Shown: in pieces, positions 24,199-44,875 of the stretch | Position numbering within the stretch: position 1 is the first letter of the stretch | Layout: every line of letters begins with the position of its first letter | DNA from: a bacterium | GTDB lineage: Bacteria; Patescibacteriota; Minisyncoccia; Phycocordibacterales; GWA1-40-21 | Length of the DNA: 44,875 bases | NCBI GenBank assembly: GCA_041308645.1 | Contig: JBFZBC010000005.1 | Span: forward strand, 1-44,875 | Direction: 5' to 3' | Position numbers and translations under genes: made by a program | Notes under the pieces: generated by a model | Seen by the model: the letters and a program-made list of their open reading frames with translations, nothing else | Told to the model about the DNA's origin: nothing | Databases searched by the model: none

Positions 24199-24255
24199 AA
24201 CTAATGTCTGAGAAAAATCCGCATAATAAATGCGGATTTTTCTCAGACATTAGTT
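24199..24255 (+). terminator. 26-bp perfect hairpin (terminator-like) after the surface protein gene
   Basis: aactaatgtctgagaaaaatccgcat (24199-24224), loop aataa, atgcggatttttctcagacattagtt (24230-24255). Confidence 0.6.
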
Positions 24256-27225: not shown

Positions 27226-30200
27226 TTATATCAATTCCTTCATACTATCTATAATCAAAGTGGTTTCGCCATTACGGAGGGAAATCTTACCTTTAATAGC
27301 TACGCATTTATCCTTAACTAATATTTTTTTATTCTCGGTCATCGTGCGGGGGAAAACCACGGTTTCAATAGTGTCTGAATAATCAGATAATTTTACAAAG
27401 GCCATGCCGTCACCTTTTTTGGTGATTATTTCTCTAATGTCCTCAATAATACCCGCTACCATCACCTCATCGCCTTCTTTAGGATTCTCCTTAACATTTT
27501 TTATACTATAATTTTTTTCATCAATTATTTTTCTAAATTTATCAAGTGGGTGACCGGACAAGTATAAGCCTAGCAGTTCTCTTTCCCAAGCTAAAGTTTC
27601 AGTAGCAGTCGCTTTAGGAGCATCTATTAGTTTAAAATTATTTACATTTTCCATTCCAGCCACATATGTGCCAAATAATGAATCCTGATTTTCAGATATT
27701 TTTCCAGCCTCTTTAGAATAGGTAAGCATATTTTCCACATTACCAAGCATTTGCCCGCGTTCGCCAAATTCGTCCATCGCTCCAGCTTTGATCAGGGCTT
27801 CAAGAGACTTTTTATTTAGTAAATTTTTACCCGCCCGCCCTTCTGAAGAAGGAGGGTCTTTGATGCGGTCCAGAAAATTTGATAGGGATTTAAATTTACC
27901 ATTCTTTTTTCTTTCCTCAATAATGGTGTTGGCAATTCCTTCACCAAAGTTTTTAATAGTTGTAAGTCCAAAACGGATAGTATCTTTTTGCCCGGGAATT
28001 TTAACCACTGTAAAGTCCTGGAAGCTTTCATTTACATTTGGCGGAAGCACAGGTATATCCATACGTTTACAATCACCAATAAATTCCGCAATTTTTTCTA
28101 CATCACCAGCATCCGCGGTCAGCACACAGGCCATATAAATAGCGGGGAAGTTTGCTTTCATATAGGCTGTTTGATAAGCCACTCGGCCGTAACTAGCGGC
28201 GTGAGCTTTATTGAATCCGTAAGCAGCAAAAGGTTCTATTAGTGACCAAAGTTCATCGGCTTTTTCTTGCGTCATACCGTTTTTCAATAATCCTTCTTTG
28301 AGTTTGCTTTTTTGTGCTTCCATTTCGGCAGGAATTTTTTTACCCATCGCTTTTCTTAATTTATCAGCTTCAAGCCAAGAGTAACCACCAAGCTTGATCG
28401 CAATAAGCATAACGTCATCTTGGTAAGTAATCACTCCAAAGGATTGAGAAAGTATATCTTTCATTCTCGGATCAAGAAATCTTATAGTTTGTGAATTGTG
28501 TTTTCTTTTTATATATTCAGGAATTGATTCAAGTGGTCCTGGGCGGTATAGAGCCACCATAGCGTTGATATCATGAATTGTTGTAGGTTTTAATTCTTTT
28601 AGATATTTAGTCATTCCAGAACCGTTGAGTTGGAAAAGTCCGGTGGTCTCACCGCGAGCGAGGAGATCAAATGTTTTAGCATCATCCATTGGTATATTTT
28701 CGATATCAATATTTATGCCATCAATTTTTTTTGCAAGTGAAACAGCATTGGAAAGAATCGCCAAATTTTTAATACCTAAAAAGTCAAACTTTAAAAGACC
28801 AGCATCTTCTACAGCGTGCATATCATACTGAGTAATAATTTTTTCTTCTCCCTTAGTGTCAAATTGCAGTGGAGTAAAGTCAGTCAGGACTGTCGGCGCC
28901 ATCACCACACCGGCCGCGTGGACTGAGATGTGCCTAGCACAACCTTCCACTTTTTTAGCCATATCAATAATTATTTTAACATCATCTTCCTTATTATATA
29001 TTTCTTTTAGTTCTGATACTTCGGCTAAGGCTCGGTCAATTGTCATCGGAAAACCTTGGGCCCCTATTGGAATAAGTTTGGAAATTCTATCTCCTAAAGT
29101 ATAAGGGTAACCCATCGCTCGAGCTACATCTTTGACTGAGCCACGAGCCATCATCGTACCAAAGGTACCTATCTGAGCCACTTTATCAGCACCATATTTT
29201 TGTTTGGCATAAGCAATCACTTCATCACGTCTGTTATCAGCATAGTCCATATCAATATCAGGTGCAGATGGACGCTCAGGATTTAGAAATCTTTCAAAAG
29301 GAAGTTTATAATCTATCGGATCAACGTTTGTAATTTTAGTCAGATAGGTAGTAAGGGATCCGGCCACTGATCCTCGGATGTTGGTCAATATTTTATGCTC
29401 ATGGGCAAAGCGTAGTAGGTCAGCTACTACTAAAAAGTACGGGGCATAACCTTTATCTTTTATTACTTTTAGTTCATATTCTAGACGGTCAGTATATTCT
29501 TTTGTCTGGTTTAAATCGCGGACTTTGAAACCAGCATAGGCAAGTTTTTTTAATTCATCATCTGCTGATAATCCACTTTCCACTTTAAAATCAGGGAAGA
29601 CCCAAGAACCAAGTTTAAGATCCAAATCACACATTTCAGCAATTCTAACAGTGTTCGTTATAGCTTCTGGTGTGTCAGCAAAAAGTTCCTCGGCCTTTTC
29701 AGGAGAAATAAAAGAAAAATCTTCCTCATTGCTATCAGAATTATGATCAGAAAAATCACCAGTCGAGTTTACAAGCATCAAAGTATCTCGTGCTTTTTTA
29801 TCTTCCGGATGGAGATAATAAACATCATGAGCCGCTACTAGTGGAGTGTCTGTTTCCTTGGCTAATGAAATAATTTTTTTAATTGTCTCTTCATGACCCT
29901 CAATTTCTGGGTGGTGAGTAATTTCTAGAAAAAAGTTTTTAGTGCCATAAACATCCTTATACCAAACCACCAGTTTTTTAGCTTCCTCTATATTTCCATT
30001 TTTTAATGCTTGAGTGGTGGCGCTAGAAAAAGAGGGGGAAATGCAGATTAAACCAAATTTATATTTTTCAATCAGCTCCTTATCAATACGGGGTTTGTAA
30101 TAAAAGCCTTCAACGTTTGCCTGTGTGACTAATTTAATTAAGTTATGATAGCCATCTAAATCTTGGGCTAGTAAAATCAAACGTGAACGCCGGTTATCCA

Positions 30201-30447
30201 CCCCACCTTGTTTGTCAAAACGCGTTCTGGCTGCCACATAAAAATCTGAGCCAATAATCGGTTTGATGCCTTCTTTTTTACAGGCTTTATAAAATTCAAT
30301 CGCCCCATACATATTGGCATTATCAGTCAGAGCCAAAGCCTCCATTCCATATTTTTTGGCTTCCTTAATTAGCTCTGGAATTTTCGGTAGGGCATTAAGC
30401 AGGGAATAATGTGAGTGCGTATGTAGATGGATGAATCTGGATAACAT
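27226..30447 (-). CDS. dnaE: DNA polymerase III subunit alpha
   Basis: 1073 aa. PHP domain HLHTHSHYS, pol III alpha core, C-terminal OB fold. Confidence 0.95.
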   Translation of the reverse strand: MLSRFIHLHTHSHYSLLNALPKIPELIKEAKKYGMEALALTDNANMYGAIEFYKACKKEGIKPIIGSDFYVAARTRFDKQGGVDNRRSRLILLAQDLDGYHNLIKLVTQANVEGFYYKPRIDKELIEKYKFGLICISPSFSSATTQALKNGNIEEAKKLVVWYKDVYGTKNFFLEITHHPEIEGHEETIKKIISLAKETDTPLVAAHDVYYLHPEDKKARDTLMLVNSTGDFSDHNSDSNEEDFSFISPEKAEELFADTPEAITNTVRIAEMCDLDLKLGSWVFPDFKVESGLSADDELKKLAYAGFKVRDLNQTKEYTDRLEYELKVIKDKGYAPYFLVVADLLRFAHEHKILTNIRGSVAGSLTTYLTKITNVDPIDYKLPFERFLNPERPSAPDIDMDYADNRRDEVIAYAKQKYGADKVAQIGTFGTMMARGSVKDVARAMGYPYTLGDRISKLIPIGAQGFPMTIDRALAEVSELKEIYNKEDDVKIIIDMAKKVEGCARHISVHAAGVVMAPTVLTDFTPLQFDTKGEEKIITQYDMHAVEDAGLLKFDFLGIKNLAILSNAVSLAKKIDGINIDIENIPMDDAKTFDLLARGETTGLFQLNGSGMTKYLKELKPTTIHDINAMVALYRPGPLESIPEYIKRKHNSQTIRFLDPRMKDILSQSFGVITYQDDVMLIAIKLGGYSWLEADKLRKAMGKKIPAEMEAQKSKLKEGLLKNGMTQEKADELWSLIEPFAAYGFNKAHAASYGRVAYQTAYMKANFPAIYMACVLTADAGDVEKIAEFIGDCKRMDIPVLPPNVNESFQDFTVVKIPGQKDTIRFGLTTIKNFGEGIANTIIEERKKNGKFKSLSNFLDRIKDPPSSEGRAGKNLLNKKSLEALIKAGAMDEFGERGQMLGNVENMLTYSKEAGKISENQDSLFGTYVAGMENVNNFKLIDAPKATATETLAWERELLGLYLSGHPLDKFRKIIDEKNYSIKNVKENPKEGDEVMVAGIIEDIREIITKKGDGMAFVKLSDYSDTIETVVFPRTMTENKKILVKDKCVAIKGKISLRNGETTLIIDSMKELI

Positions 30448-30510
30448 AAATGTATTATTACATTTTTTCCTAAAAGAGTTAAGTCTACAATTTAATTACA
30501 AATCATAGAT

Positions 30511-30538
30511 CCCCAAGTGCGCCTAGGCGCACTTGGGG
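30511..30538. repeat. perfect 28-nt palindrome (left copy)
   Basis: ccccaagtgcgcctaggcgcacttgggg. The core 24-mer ccaagtgcgcctaggcgcacttgg is identical to 30983-31006. Confidence 0.9.
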
Positions 30539-30558
30539 GTTGGTGATATAATAAAAAG

Positions 30559-30951
30559 ATGAAAAAATATTTTAAATATAAAGGACTTACAGTTAATCGT
30601 TTTGGTTTACCAGTATTTAGTGCTAATGGAAATATGATTAGTAAATCTGTAAACGGAGAAAAAGGAAAAAGATATTTTCAGTATCAGTGTTTTAATCATA
30701 ATTTTAAAAATACCGCACCAAGGAATTTAATTGTAATGTATGATATTCCTAATAACAAGAAGAAGGAGAGAGATTGGTTTAGGCGTCATTTACAGAAGTT
30801 TGATTATATAATGGTTCAAAAAAGTGTTTGGGTTGGTCCATCACCTTTACCTAAGGATTTTCTTAATTATGTGAAATCTATTGGTCTTTTAAATAAATTT
30901 AAAACATTGAAATTGGCTAAACCATATTCAAGATTACAAAATAATATGTAA
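30559..30951 (+). CDS. small Cas2-fold / PaaX C-terminal-like protein
   Basis: 130 aa. LIVMYDIPNNKKKERDWFRRHLQKFDYIMVQKSVWVGP matches the beta-alpha-beta pattern (xxYDIP..kR...r..L...g...lQkSVw) shared by Cas2 and the PaaX-like proteins common in CPR genomes. An extended -10 (tgatataat) lies 6 nt before the ATG. Confidence 0.45.
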   Translation: MKKYFKYKGLTVNRFGLPVFSANGNMISKSVNGEKGKRYFQYQCFNHNFKNTAPRNLIVMYDIPNNKKKERDWFRRHLQKFDYIMVQKSVWVGPSPLPKDFLNYVKSIGLLNKFKTLKLAKPYSRLQNNM

Positions 30952-30980
30952 ATTATTATTTTGTAAATAATTTTAGTAAG

Positions 30981-31008
30981 AACCAAGTGCGCCTAGGCGC
31001 ACTTGGTT
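30981..31008. repeat. perfect 28-nt palindrome (right copy)
   Basis: aaccaagtgcgcctaggcgcacttggtt, 30 nt after the ORF stop. Confidence 0.9.
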
Positions 31009-31082
31009 TGGGGTATGATTTGTTTATATTATATTATATTATTTTAAAATAATATATATTTTTATATGCTATAATATTTTTT

Positions 31083-32762
31083 ATGACACAAGAGGAAGCG
31101 TTAGATATTTTAAAATTTGGTTATAATGTTTTTTTGACTGGACCGGCGGGAAGTGGAAAAACGCATCTTTTGAATAAATATATTAATTTTTTAAAGGAAA
31201 ATTATGTGGATGTGGGTATTACAGCGAGTACCGGTATTGCCGCCACGCATATGGGCGGTACCACTATTCATTCCTGGACAGGGATGGGGATAAAAGATTA
31301 TCTAAATAAAATTGATTTAGAGGAATTAAAATCCAGGAAATATTTGCGTGACCGCTTTGAGCGAACACAGGTGTTGGTGATAGACGAAGTGTCTATGCTT
31401 CATCACTTTAGGCTAGATTTGATTGATGAGATATGCCGTCATATGAAAAATAATGATGCGCCGTTTGGAGGAATGCAGGTTATTTTATGTGGCGATTTTT
31501 TTCAGCTACCGCCTATTGCTCGGGCGGGTGAACCGCTAGCTCAATTTGCCTATGAAGCAGAAGTTTGGAAAGGGGCAAATTTTAAAATTTGTTATTTGGA
31601 GGAACAACACCGTCAGACGGATTCAGCTTTCCTAAAAGTTTTAAATGAAATCCGGGGGAATAGATTGTCAGATGAAGGAATGAAACATTTAAAAGGTAGG
31701 CAGAATAAAAAAACCTTTCAAGGGATAGAGCCTACCCGTCTTCATACTCATAATATTGATGTGGATCTGATTAATCAAAGAGAGTTGGAAAAACTGCACG
31801 GTCAAGGGCGAGAATTTATGATGGATGGTAAGGGAAGAAAACCACTAGTGGAGGCTCTGAAAAAAAGTTGCCTAGCACCAGAAGTTTTAAAATTGAAAGT
31901 GGGAGCGAAGGTAATGTTCGTAAAAAATAATTTTGAGGAAAGTTATGTAAATGGAACATTAGGAAAGGTGGTGGCTTTTGATTCAGAAGGACCAGTGGTG
32001 CAAATCACTAATGGTAGAAATATTCATGTGAAGCCAGTAAATTGGATGATTGAGGAAGATGGTAAAGCTAAGGCCATTATCACCCAATTTCCTTTGCGTT
32101 TAGCGTGGGCGATAACTGTCCATAAAAGTCAGGGTATGAGTCTCGATGCTATTGAAGTGGATTTGTCTAAATCTTTTGAAAAAGGTATGGGTTATGTGGC
32201 CTTGTCTCGAGTGCGATCACTCGAGGGACTAATTCTTTTAGGCTTAAATGAAATTGCTACCCAAGTGCGTTGTGAGGTTTTAGATTTTGATGAAGAATTA
32301 AGGAAAATTTCTAATAAGCACTTGGCAGAGATGCAGGCCCTGAGTGATAATGAAAAAAAAGAAAGACAGAAAAAGTTTTTACAGAAAATTTCTCCGGAAA
32401 GAACGGCCAGCGGAAAAATAAAAAAGAAAAAAATTTCTACTTTGGAAGAAACACGTAAGTATTTAGAGGCAGGAATGAATTTAAATGAAATAGCTAATGC
32501 TAAGGGAACAAAAATTGGTACAGTATTTGATCATTTAGAAAAACTTCTCAGTGAGGATCCAAAATTAGATATTCGTCATTTTGAATCTGAAATCTCTGTG
32601 AATAAATTTAAAAAAATATACAAAGCCTTTAATGATATTTATGGTGATAATAGGGAATTACGCTTAACACCAATTATGAAGATTTTAGGTGGAGAAAAAA
32701 AAGGTTTTTCCTTTGAAGATCTCCGTTTAGTCCGCCTATTTTTAAAAAAGAAGGGGATGTAA
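31083..32762 (+). CDS. Pif1/RecD-family SF1B DNA helicase with C-terminal HTH domain
   Basis: 559 aa. Walker A GPAGSGKTH, motif Ia ASTGIAA, Walker B VIDEVSM, CGDFFQLPP, AITVHKSQGMSLD. C-terminal HTH-like segment LNEIANAKGTKIGTVFDHLEKL. Confidence 0.85.
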   Translation: MTQEEALDILKFGYNVFLTGPAGSGKTHLLNKYINFLKENYVDVGITASTGIAATHMGGTTIHSWTGMGIKDYLNKIDLEELKSRKYLRDRFERTQVLVIDEVSMLHHFRLDLIDEICRHMKNNDAPFGGMQVILCGDFFQLPPIARAGEPLAQFAYEAEVWKGANFKICYLEEQHRQTDSAFLKVLNEIRGNRLSDEGMKHLKGRQNKKTFQGIEPTRLHTHNIDVDLINQRELEKLHGQGREFMMDGKGRKPLVEALKKSCLAPEVLKLKVGAKVMFVKNNFEESYVNGTLGKVVAFDSEGPVVQITNGRNIHVKPVNWMIEEDGKAKAIITQFPLRLAWAITVHKSQGMSLDAIEVDLSKSFEKGMGYVALSRVRSLEGLILLGLNEIATQVRCEVLDFDEELRKISNKHLAEMQALSDNEKKERQKKFLQKISPERTASGKIKKKKISTLEETRKYLEAGMNLNEIANAKGTKIGTVFDHLEKLLSEDPKLDIRHFESEISVNKFKKIYKAFNDIYGDNRELRLTPIMKILGGEKKGFSFEDLRLVRLFLKKKGM

Positions 32763-36849: not shown

Positions 36850-37050
36850 TTATGCTTTGTTAACATTAACAGCTGCAGGACCCTTTGGGGTATCTTCAGT
36901 GTCAAATGATACAGCATCTCCTTCTCTTAGGTCAGCGAAAGCAACACCTGAAAGAGAATTGCTATGGAAGAATAAATCCTTCGCTAAGCCTTCTCCTGTG
37001 ATGAAGCCAAAACCTTTGTCAGAGACCAATTTTTTAATTGTACCGGTCAT
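36850..37050 (-). CDS. cspA: cold shock protein (CspA family)
   Basis: 66 aa. RNP1-like KGFGFI and RNP2-like region. Confidence 0.95.
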   Translation of the reverse strand: MTGTIKKLVSDKGFGFITGEGLAKDLFFHSNSLSGVAFADLREGDAVSFDTEDTPKGPAAVNVNKA

Positions 37051-37058
37051 TGATTTAC

Positions 37059-37142
37059 CCGTTAAAGTTTTAATTGATGGAAAATCAGAGATTTTCCTGG
37101 CATTAGGTTCAAAACCTAATGCGTCAGTTAAAATTTTTTCGG
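37059..37142. repeat. 84-nt three-stem structured element, copy 1 (inside the csp 5' UTR)
   Basis: P1 is 37059-37076 paired with 37125-37142. P2 is ggaaaatc-aga-gattttcc (37079-37097). P3 is g-cattaggtt-caa-aacctaatg-c (37100-37122). The second copy is at 44607-44690. Confidence 0.6.
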
Positions 37143-37229
37143 TTAATTAGTTTACTTAATAAAATACAAACGAATGTTATGTTTTAGAAAATGACTACTT
37201 TTCGAACCATACCTCTCTTTTGTAATTCA

Positions 37230-44590: not shown

Positions 44591-44875
44591 ATGAAAAATA
44601 ATTCACCCGAAAAAATTTTGACCGATGGAAAATCAGAGATTTTCCAGGTACCAGTAAAAAAAACTGGTACGTCGGTCAAAACTTTAACGGGTAAAAAAGG
44701 TTTCGTCGTCCCGCTTATAATCGCCATTGTTGCTATTATAGCGATTGGTGGTGAGTATTACATAATGAAGTCTAAAGGTCCATGTGCTTATCTTCATACT
44801 GGTTACAGAAATACCGAAACTGGATTATGTGAAGATTTTGGTAGCTGTGACAGAATACCAGTAAAGTATGTCAAA
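44591..44875 (+). CDS. hypothetical membrane-anchored protein, N-terminal fragment (runs off the window end)
   Basis: The ATG at 44591 opens MKNNSPEKILTDGKSEIFQVPVKKTGTSVKTLTGKKGFVVPLIIAIVAIIAIGG..., with one TM helix then a Cys-containing segment. The first ~33 codons overlap the structured repeat, so the start is uncertain. Confidence 0.4.
   Translation, partial: MKNNSPEKILTDGKSEIFQVPVKKTGTSVKTLTGKKGFVVPLIIAIVAIIAIGGEYYIMKSKGPCAYLHTGYRNTETGLCEDFGSCDRIPVKYVK
44607..44690. repeat. 84-nt three-stem structured element, copy 2 (downstream of rpoC)
   Basis: P1 is 44607-44624 paired with 44673-44690. P2 (44627-44645) is identical to copy 1. P3 is gtaccagt-aaaaaaa-actggtac (44648-44670). Confidence 0.6.

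Follow-up and report, generated by a model that had tools for sequence, protein, structure and literature searches.

Cas2 proteins act as dimers lying on duplex DNA, and some Cas2 and VapD proteins are ribonucleases (RNases). The PaaX repressors join a GntR-like winged helix-turn-helix (HTH) to a central Cas2-like domain (PF20803) and to PaaX_C, and their palindrome overlaps the promoter. To our knowledge, sequence-specific binding has not been described for Cas2, and the fold that Cas2 shares with the middle domain of PaaX is not known to read DNA sequence. Genes that carry their own palindromic sites have been found in other settings: the single- or few-copy genes of REP-associated tyrosine transposases (RAYT), which are HUH/Y1 transposase homologues, are flanked by their cognate repetitive extragenic palindromes (REP, REPIN), while lambda CI (looping between OR and OL), Bacillus subtilis RTP (Ter beside rtp) and ParB (parS in or near parB) are site-specific dimers whose genes are flanked by, or contain, their own high-affinity palindromic sites. 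Here we describe a 130-residue protein, X, encoded in a 44,875-nucleotide (nt) stretch of contig JBFZBC010000005.1 (hereafter the window) from an ultra-small, Paceibacteria-type bacterium of the candidate phyla radiation (CPR). Its gene lies between two copies of a perfect palindrome and belongs to a large family in which genes and palindromes are paired. We favour, as the probable reading, that X binds DNA sequence-specifically as a homodimer, being a reduced CPR relative of PaaX that reads the palindrome and regulates its own gene. A full-text literature search found no description of the family or of its palindromes.

The first-pass annotation of the window had singled out a GC-rich 24-nt palindrome, centred on CCTAGG, that occurs twice and brackets a single open reading frame (ORF), and a direct reading of the window bears this out. 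The sequence CCAAGTGCGCCTAGGCGCACTTGG is found at 30513-30536 and 30983-31006, with a G+C content of 67% compared to 35% for the window. No third copy occurs in the 44,875 nt even when up to 3 mismatches are tolerated (0 expected from shuffled sequences). Both copies extend to perfect 28-nt palindromes, ending in CCCC..GGGG upstream of the X gene and in AA..TT downstream (Table 1).

X itself consists of an N-terminal beta-hairpin with the motif YKG..FG.P, a disordered variable loop (residues 24-33) and a Cas2-like domain (57-118). What had been taken for a PaaX_C-like domain proved to be PaaX_M, the middle, Cas2-like domain of PaaX: residues 58-118 match Pfam PF20803 ('central Cas2-like domain of PaaX') with an E value of 3.9e-12 (46.5 bits, cut-off 24), a higher score than that obtained with CRISPR_Cas2 (PF09827; residues 57-106, 2.1e-7, 31.5 bits, cut-off 23.8) or with NCBIfam TIGR01573 (cas2; residues 57-93 alone, 30.9 bits, cut-off 24.5). 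Neither the winged HTH PF07848 nor PaaX_C (PF08223) was reported at E values up to 10, and the PaaX equivalog TIGR02277 fails by a wide interval (12.6 bits, cut-off 264.55). X thus shares PaaX_M with the PaaX repressors but differs from them in lacking the two flanking domains, in its length and in having no paa genes. An AlphaFold2 model based on 103 homologues (mean predicted local distance difference test, pLDDT, 77) places the hairpin at residues 5-12 and a b-a-b-b-a-b core at 57-118. Its top Foldseek matches in the PDB are Cas2 proteins, followed by VapD, with weak E values of 1e-2 and a Foldseek probability of 0.97-1.0; a PDB search with the sequence returned nothing relevant. The likeness to Cas2 and VapD lies in this ferredoxin-like arrangement, in the signature YDI..R..L..Q.SVW and in the Cas2-type Asp after b1 (D62), which is nearly invariant in the family. 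X differs from these proteins in an additional 55-residue N-terminal region, and nuclease activity of X would be putative. In the family alignment neither a His-hydrophobic-His motif nor the conserved pattern of a catalytic Tyr that marks the HUH/Y1 type is seen, Y1_Tnp gave no match at E values up to 10, and no Pfam transposase match and no recombinase or transposase domain was found in X. The earlier assignment of a Cas2/PaaX-type fold without an HUH motif therefore agrees with the Pfam, AlphaFold and Foldseek results.

Homologues of X (more than 1000 clusters at 90% identity) are 58-86% identical, almost all about 128 residues long, and come from metagenome-assembled genomes of the Paceibacteria, Nomurabacteria and Taylorbacteria types. 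A scan of species-representative genomes confirmed 344 copies, with two or three in many genomes; none was found in the viral contigs scanned. For statistics on gene architecture, the gene was located in 82 loci and both flanks were searched, the downstream counts referring to 80. Palindromes generally flank these genes. Upstream, 80 of the 82 genes are preceded by a zero-loop palindrome in which 8 or more of the 10 arm positions pair, its centre 33-37 nt before the ATG in nearly all, and an enlarged set gave the same result (105 of 107 unique genes). Across the 80 loci a TATAAT-like box is conserved at +23 to +28 from the palindrome centre, and the ATG follows it after 5-8 nt, which leaves no space for a Shine-Dalgarno sequence. 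The palindrome core covers about -44 to -25 of the gene's own promoter; in the window the 28-nt palindrome would span roughly -48 to -21, given a leaderless start. The X promoter was not listed by a consensus promoter scan that needs a -35 match, and its -10 element was checked by conservation. The operator-like position first noted for the left copy is thus kept, in the same register, throughout the family.

Downstream, a matching palindrome lies 3′ of the stop codon in 54 of the 80 genes, with its centre between -14 and +61 nt from the stop and a single exception at +135. The two flanking palindromes belong together: in 27 of the 54 cases all 20 positions agree between the downstream core and the upstream core of the gene concerned, and the mean identity is 18.8 of 20 positions to the own upstream core compared to 13.9 to the cores of other loci. 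Moreover, paralogues within multi-copy genomes (54-77% identical) have different cores in 12 of 12 genomes. The core is centred on CCATGG in 40 cases and on CTATAG in 15, with few hybrids, while the CCTAGG of the window is unique.

Columns of the protein alignment were compared with positions of the half-site, and switches were counted for residues 65 and 68 by Fitch parsimony on a neighbour-joining tree (numbering as in the X of the window). Residue 65, in the loop after b1 (YDIP-x), varies with DNA position 2. Wherever this residue is Asp or Glu (37 of 37 cases), one or both half-sites have T (both halves in 34, G/T in 3), and an acidic residue is never found with C (0 of 60), which is mostly accompanied by His; about 14 switches were counted. 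Correspondingly, the residue is acidic where the centre is CTATAG (37 of 37) and non-acidic where it is CCATGG. Residue 68, in the first turn of a1, varies with position 4: Arg accompanies A in 9 of 10 cases and Lys accompanies G in 92 of 94, and the switches number about 7. JAVHRR01 has a pair of paralogues, with K68 and R68, whose cores are distinguished by position 4 of both half-sites alone. All 3 instances of Gln at residue 88, in the b2-b3 turn, have A at position 2, and residues 39, 41 and 44 track the bases at the outer positions 8-9. The X of the window has N65, together with its unique centre.

A ferredoxin-like fold brings the b1-a1 loop and the b2-b3 turn together at one end of the sheet, and it is this end that in Cas2 dimers bears the conserved Asp near the dimer axis. 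By this topology residues 65, 68 and 88 would share one end of the fold, so that reading of the centre by these residues and of the outer positions by residues 36-44 would be geometrically sensible for a dimer placed on the dyad. Because of the residue-base covariation, X evidently recognises its palindromes. The centre is symmetric and changes symmetrically, which favours a symmetric dimer on duplex DNA over recognition of a hairpin loop.

These observations are consistent with a model in which the recognition site of X would be a perfect palindrome of 20-28 bp on each side of its own gene, with the loop after b1, the start of a1 (residues 65 and 68) and the b2-b3 turn (residue 88) reading the central base pairs at the dyad and residues 36-44 reading the outer positions. 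The upstream site would lie over the -35 region of an extended -10, leaderless promoter, so that X most likely represses its own transcription from there. The downstream site, present in two thirds of the family, may be a second operator that forms a loop of ~450 bp with the first or, alternatively, since no U-tract terminator follows it, a protein roadblock insulating the downstream genes. Recognition would differ from that by PaaX in that it apparently resides in the Cas2-like domain itself, and the sites differ in lying on both sides of the gene and in being dispersed as well. X resembles CI, RTP and ParB in its own flanking sites and in that the genome has a small number of other perfect sites, of which some fall in coding regions, as parS sites do. 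It differs from all three in its unrelated fold and in the several paralogues per genome with different specificities, and nothing seen here points to a role in lysogeny, replication termination or segregation.

The affinity to PaaX extends to longer proteins. An exhaustive profile search (E values up to 1e-3) returned 1879 clusters at 50% identity, most of them of 155-200 residues, into a few of which the whole 128-residue family collapses. The longer relatives share with X the YKG..VN.FGLP motif and the Cas2-like domain, and carry between the two an HTH-like segment of ~35 residues (approximately 'L.K.GYL....v.LT.KG') where X has its disordered loop. From this comparison X appears to be a reduced relative of these PaaX-like proteins. 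Relatives of 164-192 residues with the HTH-like region have palindromes of their own, different ones, on both sides, with the upstream copy abutting TATAAT and the second after the stop codon (Table 1). Since the longer relatives are bracketed too, a regulator gene bracketed by its own sites would be a trait of the superfamily, and X its minimal form. The palindrome after the longer gene of locus L216 measures 44 nt. At L054 (4981-5343) a distant paralogue of 121 residues is followed by ACCACTTTCAGACGGCCGTCTGAAAGTGGT, in which two inverted copies of GCCGTCTGAA, the DNA-uptake 10-mer of Neisseria, are contained; we treat this as probably a coincidence.

Several observations weigh against autoregulation as the whole story. 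X has no recognisable HTH, an asymmetric variant of the half-site (TCAGC versus TACGC) recurs in the family, and the covariation is also compatible with recognition of an extruded DNA hairpin. In addition, the palindromes are not confined to X genes. A palindrome-centred scan of metagenome contigs with ATMTACGCYATRGCGTAKAT yielded at least 120 loci with at least 140 distinct sites. Among the matches listed, 27 sites lie in the upstream register of an X gene, 20 just 3′ of one, 62 are solo with sufficient flank to exclude X, and 31 are too close to a contig end to be classed, so that 62 of the 109 confidently classified copies (~57%) are solo and 47 stand beside X. The 62 solo sites are found at gene 3′ ends or within ORFs and out of the promoter register: 19 between convergent genes, 2 between divergent genes, 22 between genes in tandem (as a rule 10-40 nt past the upstream stop), 12 inside ORFs and 7 without a called gene of at least 100 residues on one side. 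Finally, many copies have locus-specific outer arms that are perfectly symmetric, giving palindromes of up to 44-48 nt. Neither the scatter over gene 3′ ends and ORFs nor these arms is explained by autoregulation alone.

While the palindrome does follow many unrelated genes, its enrichment beside the X family is enormous and the link between the two stands. In 1.05 Mb of gene-centred loci, 107 of 190 G+C-containing 20-nt palindromes fall within two small intervals beside X; ~14 further family-type copies lie away from it, some bracketing a neighbouring gene, and the density of solo sites is about one per 75 kb. Because the solo sites are out of promoter register, a simple regulon is unsupported. 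Their role as operators of other genes was rejected, as no peak at 33-37 nt is seen in how far they lie from downstream starts, single cases apart; one such is locus L082, where a palindrome stands in the X-type register 36 nt before the ATG of a P-loop kinase gene situated ahead of X. At L074 (7983-9047), L082 (2737-3737), L007, L013 and L022 a neighbour of X is bracketed by the same palindrome as well, giving the order palindrome-X-palindrome-gene-palindrome.

Copies inside genes keep the reading frame, their peptide being LRHGVD or, when the other open frame is used, STPWRR (Table 1). Dihydrofolate reductase (DHFR) orthologues without the palindrome are equally long (FKKEGAEV versus YLRHGVDV), so that 20 nt were replaced and not inserted. 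Orthologous ComFC sites differ symmetrically (ATAT.. versus ATCT..), and one or two copies, in part decayed, are present in the linkers of ComFC. These copies recall the Rickettsia palindromic elements (RPE), which likewise stand in frame in genes of conserved proteins and add or replace a short peptide. RPE are 100-150 bp long, however, whereas the core here is 20-28 bp and would have a protein reader; for RPE we know of no cognate protein. X genes themselves can hold a copy: at L017 (~5606), L018 (~8089) and L020 (~7411) a cognate palindrome lies within the disordered variable loop (SEVRHGEL), its outermost base pair co-varying between loci (C-G versus T-A), and four copies surround the one X gene of L017. 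The palindromes, with their dispersal, in-frame copies and symmetric arms, have a life of their own. Protein contacts do not account for the long symmetric arms, which point either to templated correction or extension coupled to intrastrand pairing or to selection in favour of long stems. Arm symmetry of at least 8 nt around a single upstream copy occurs in 10 of 54 loci, more commonly than complementarity between the outer arms of the two copies, and the complementary outer arms of the window belong with this phenomenon.

Such behaviour is what would be expected if the palindromes were miniature mobile or self-propagating repeats and X their cognate processor, an analogue of RAYT with REP/REPIN. 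X might then work at the dyad as a nickase or nuclease of the Cas2 fold, or else copy or homogenise the repeats, the flanking palindromes being 'home' copies. We rate this explanation as rather unlikely, yet as a serious rival that overlaps with the autoregulator model, in that binding to the upstream copy would also regulate X. It accounts for the cognate repeat that flanks each X gene and differs between paralogues, for the dispersal of copies with identical 20-nt cores, mostly after stop codons, and for in-frame copies in four unrelated housekeeping genes, of which that in DHFR was exchanged for the resident 20 nt and did not arise by drift. The symmetric change of orthologous intragenic sites in ComFC, the copies in the variable loop of X, the near-invariance of D62 and the long symmetric locus-specific arms, which suggest hairpin-templated processes, fit it as well. 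As in REP/RAYT systems, the repeats are dispersed at gene 3′ ends, each paralogue has a repeat type of its own, and the positions of the genes are vertically conserved. RAYT are HUH/Y1 enzymes, however, and X has neither such a motif nor a transposase match, and catalysis by X would be conjectural. REPs are imperfect hairpins in tens to hundreds of copies, whereas the X repeats are perfect zero-loop palindromes numbering, by rough extrapolation, ~10-20 per genome, with about one solo copy per 75 kb and, in the 45-kb window, the two flanking copies alone. The strict locking of the upstream copy to the promoter fits an operator and not a REP, the relatives in the PaaX family are regulators, and no insertion polymorphism of a solo palindrome was captured between near-identical genomes. 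The fuller proposition, that a Cas2-fold family reads a 20-28-bp palindrome by a simple code and maintains, copies or nicks undescribed miniature repeats of CPR genomes as a 'REPtron' independent of RAYT, is likewise doubtful in our view.

A different form of mobility is that the 526-bp unit between the outer arms is a transposable or integrating cassette (with terminal inverted repeats as in insertion sequences (IS), or integron-cassette-like) that entered the dnaE-pif1 site by recombination at a pre-existing long palindrome. We consider this improbable. The inverted termini described earlier are present in the window: ACAAATCATA on the left and TATGATTTGT at 31014-31023 each adjoin a CCCC/GGGG run, each with a 3-nt indel, and match over 10 nt, as if one long palindrome had been split. 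Such complementarity (at least 8 nt) is rare by chance, with 0.6% of mismatched locus pairs, but is also the exception in the family, with 4 of 54 loci. Neither the termini nor the 526-bp unit between them is thus a feature of the family, and ACAAATCATA as a general element end was rejected.

What occupies the site differs among close relatives. Between dnaE and pif1, locus L209/L210 has an X that is 69% identical and has other palindromes, while L211/L212 and L216 have spacers of 63 and 56 nt with neither X nor palindrome. Upstream of pif1, a third type of X (core AAGTTCGCAGGTG) is found in L207, L215 and L011, and other genes in L213. Between these genomes, the helicase is 86-91% and DnaE 81-89% identical but X just 65-70%, and the X closest to that of the window (79%) stands in the topA-dprA site of another genome. 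These differences may reflect either gain, loss or replacement of whole modules at one site or episodic fast divergence, and they lend the mobility part of the earlier suggestion indirect support. On the other hand, no near-identical copies of X were found within one genome, so that X is not an active transposon; its paralogues are old (54-77% identical), and several groups keep their synteny across genera (topA-X-dprA, rpsL-rpsG-X-fusA, SMC-X and folD-(P-loop kinase)-X). The empty sites contain no solo palindrome, and alignment of occupied with empty dnaE-pif1 spacers does not define the ends of an insertion, the AT-rich flanks being too diverged. No recombinase or transposase domain, and no homologue in the scanned viral contigs, was found that would speak for a cassette. 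An IS200/IS605-type element, the architecture to which the locus had been likened, was rejected on the same grounds, namely the missing transposase domain, the termini and the identities of the intragenomic copies. Across the family, X adjoins the Pif1-type helicase family in 9 of 82 loci. In the relative closest by helicase identity (91%; L207/L208, 1-609), the site is rearranged, with genes for an RVT_1 reverse transcriptase and a VWA-domain protein, and not dnaE, upstream of X-pif1.

Alternatively, the palindromes could act as RNA hairpins (terminators, 3′-end stabilisers or processing sites), X being an RNA binder or RNase of the VapD/Cas2 type. In its favour, hairpins of very high stability are predicted at the two palindromes of the window (-30.8 and -34.6 kcal/mol; z-scores -6 and -8), and most solo copies are found shortly 3′ of stop codons and between genes that converge. 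A subset is flanked by A-runs and T-runs in the manner of bidirectional terminators, and RNases are known among Cas2 and VapD proteins, the latter being among the Foldseek matches. However, T-runs 3′ of the sites downstream of X are at background (5 of 54, compared to 11%), and no enrichment was seen beside the dispersed copies. An intrinsic (Rho-independent) terminator was rejected for this reason and because the left copy lies between divergent starts, in line with the earlier remark that the repeat is not a plain terminator; the sole terminator-like call of the region is an off-register sub-stem. A leaderless start would place the upstream copy outside the X mRNA, the symmetric change of the centre is not required of a hairpin loop, and base-specific covariation at stem position 4 suits groove reading of B-DNA better than A-form RNA. 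Rfam 15 gave only far-sub-threshold chance matches at the two hairpins, and tRNAs alone in the whole window. This explanation, too, is therefore one to which we give little credence.

That X is a true Cas2 orphaned by loss of cas1 and of a CRISPR array is scarcely credible: the two Cas2 models score above their cut-offs and some database records label homologues Cas2, but PaaX_M gives the higher score, and the family is set apart by a conserved N-terminal region of its own, by cognate palindromes and by having several paralogues in a genome. Also, as had been stated for the window, no array-like repeats occur there and no Cas1 family occurs among the called genes of annotated related loci, nor did a Cas1-like cluster stand out in a neighbour census of the 82 loci, in which clusters were identified by reading sequences and not by Pfam.

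X would thus be a type of PaaX-like autoregulator with an unexpected reader domain and an unexplained repeat biology. The covariation yields a testable recognition code (H65 with C:G, D/E65 with T:A, K68 with G:C and R68 with A:T), based on many independent switches, and suggests a likely function for a large, highly conserved Paceibacteria family now unannotated or misnamed 'Cas2' or 'PaaX'. Perfect palindromes are dispersed through streamlined CPR genomes, even in frame in housekeeping genes, and co-evolve with their reader, which makes the system a tractable case for the co-diversification of palindromic repeats and binding proteins. Orthogonal pairs of protein and 20-bp site could serve as compact synthetic regulators. 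Should X and its repeats form a RAYT-independent 'REPtron', sequence-specific palindromic-repeat recognition by a Cas2-like domain would exist outside CRISPR, with a bearing on how Cas2 and CRISPR repeats came together.

Table 1. Features of the X locus in the window, and related features in other loci
Feature	Position	Strand	Remark
ORF X, 130 residues	30559..30951	+	single ORF bracketed by the two palindromes
Upstream 28-nt perfect zero-loop palindrome CCCCAAGTGCGCCTAGGCGCACTTGGGG	30511..30538		centre ~34.5 nt 5′ of the ATG; putative operator
Downstream 28-nt perfect palindrome AACCAAGTGCGCCTAGGCGCACTTGGTT	30981..31008		31 nt 3′ of the X stop; putative second binding site
Outer left arm ACAAATCATA	30498..30507		read directly; complementary to 31014-31023
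Outer right arm GGGGTATGATTTGT	31010..31023		complementary to left ACAAATCATA..CCCC (30498-30514)
Extended -10 box TGATATAAT	30544..30552	+	read directly; 6 nt 5′ of the ATG; putative leaderless start
dnaE (DNA polymerase III alpha)	27226..30447	-	divergent from X
Pif1-type helicase with C-terminal HTH_40 domain	31083..32762	+	gene 3′ of X
Longer PaaX_M relative flanked by palindromes	L216 5478-6047		found by chance in fetched loci
Longer PaaX_M relative flanked by palindromes	L099 953-1498		found by chance in fetched loci
Longer PaaX_M relative flanked by palindromes	L133 7753-8331		found by chance in fetched loci
Longer PaaX_M relative flanked by palindromes	L104 530-1024		found by chance in fetched loci
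In-frame palindrome copies, ComFC-like	L090, L115, L136, L157, L191, L205		
In-frame palindrome copies, DHFR	L047, L111, L149, L174, L188		
In-frame palindrome copy, TsaD	L148		
In-frame palindrome copies, UvrC-like	L098, L183		

The Pfam families of the genes on either side of X were taken from orthologues that are 81-91% identical. The promoter of dnaE (AATAAT with TG, 30454-30482) is of the leaderless type and lies outside the palindrome. Both dnaE and pif1 (30454-30482 and 31069-31082, and in related loci too) resemble X in that a -10 box precedes the ATG by 6-8 nt and a Shine-Dalgarno sequence is missing, and from this shared layout leaderless starts seem common for first genes in this organism.

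Three further features of the window are noted here. One is a 94-nt element whose inverted repeats are nested, with two hairpins inside an outer stem; its two copies, in direct orientation, lie at 37053-37146, between a minus-strand cold-shock gene (36850-37050) and rpoB, and at 44601-44694, ~60 nt after the rpoC stop, so that the pair brackets rpoBC. The element has no Rfam match, and its second inner hairpin differs in sequence between the copies while pairing is kept. A perfect hairpin at 24199-24255, whose arms measure 26 nt and whose loop measures 5 nt (AACTAATGTCTGAGAAAAATCCGCAT / ATGCGGATTTTTCTCAGACATTAGTT), has no sequence relation to the X palindrome. Finally, a cluster of tRNA-Glu, tRNA-Ser and tRNA-Val genes (329-1081) contains short direct repeats (387-626), with CGATAGACGATAAGGCCAATA at 387-407 and 552-572; since the first of these overlaps the 5′ part of the minus-strand tRNA-Glu gene, the repeat may be a duplicated tRNA fragment.

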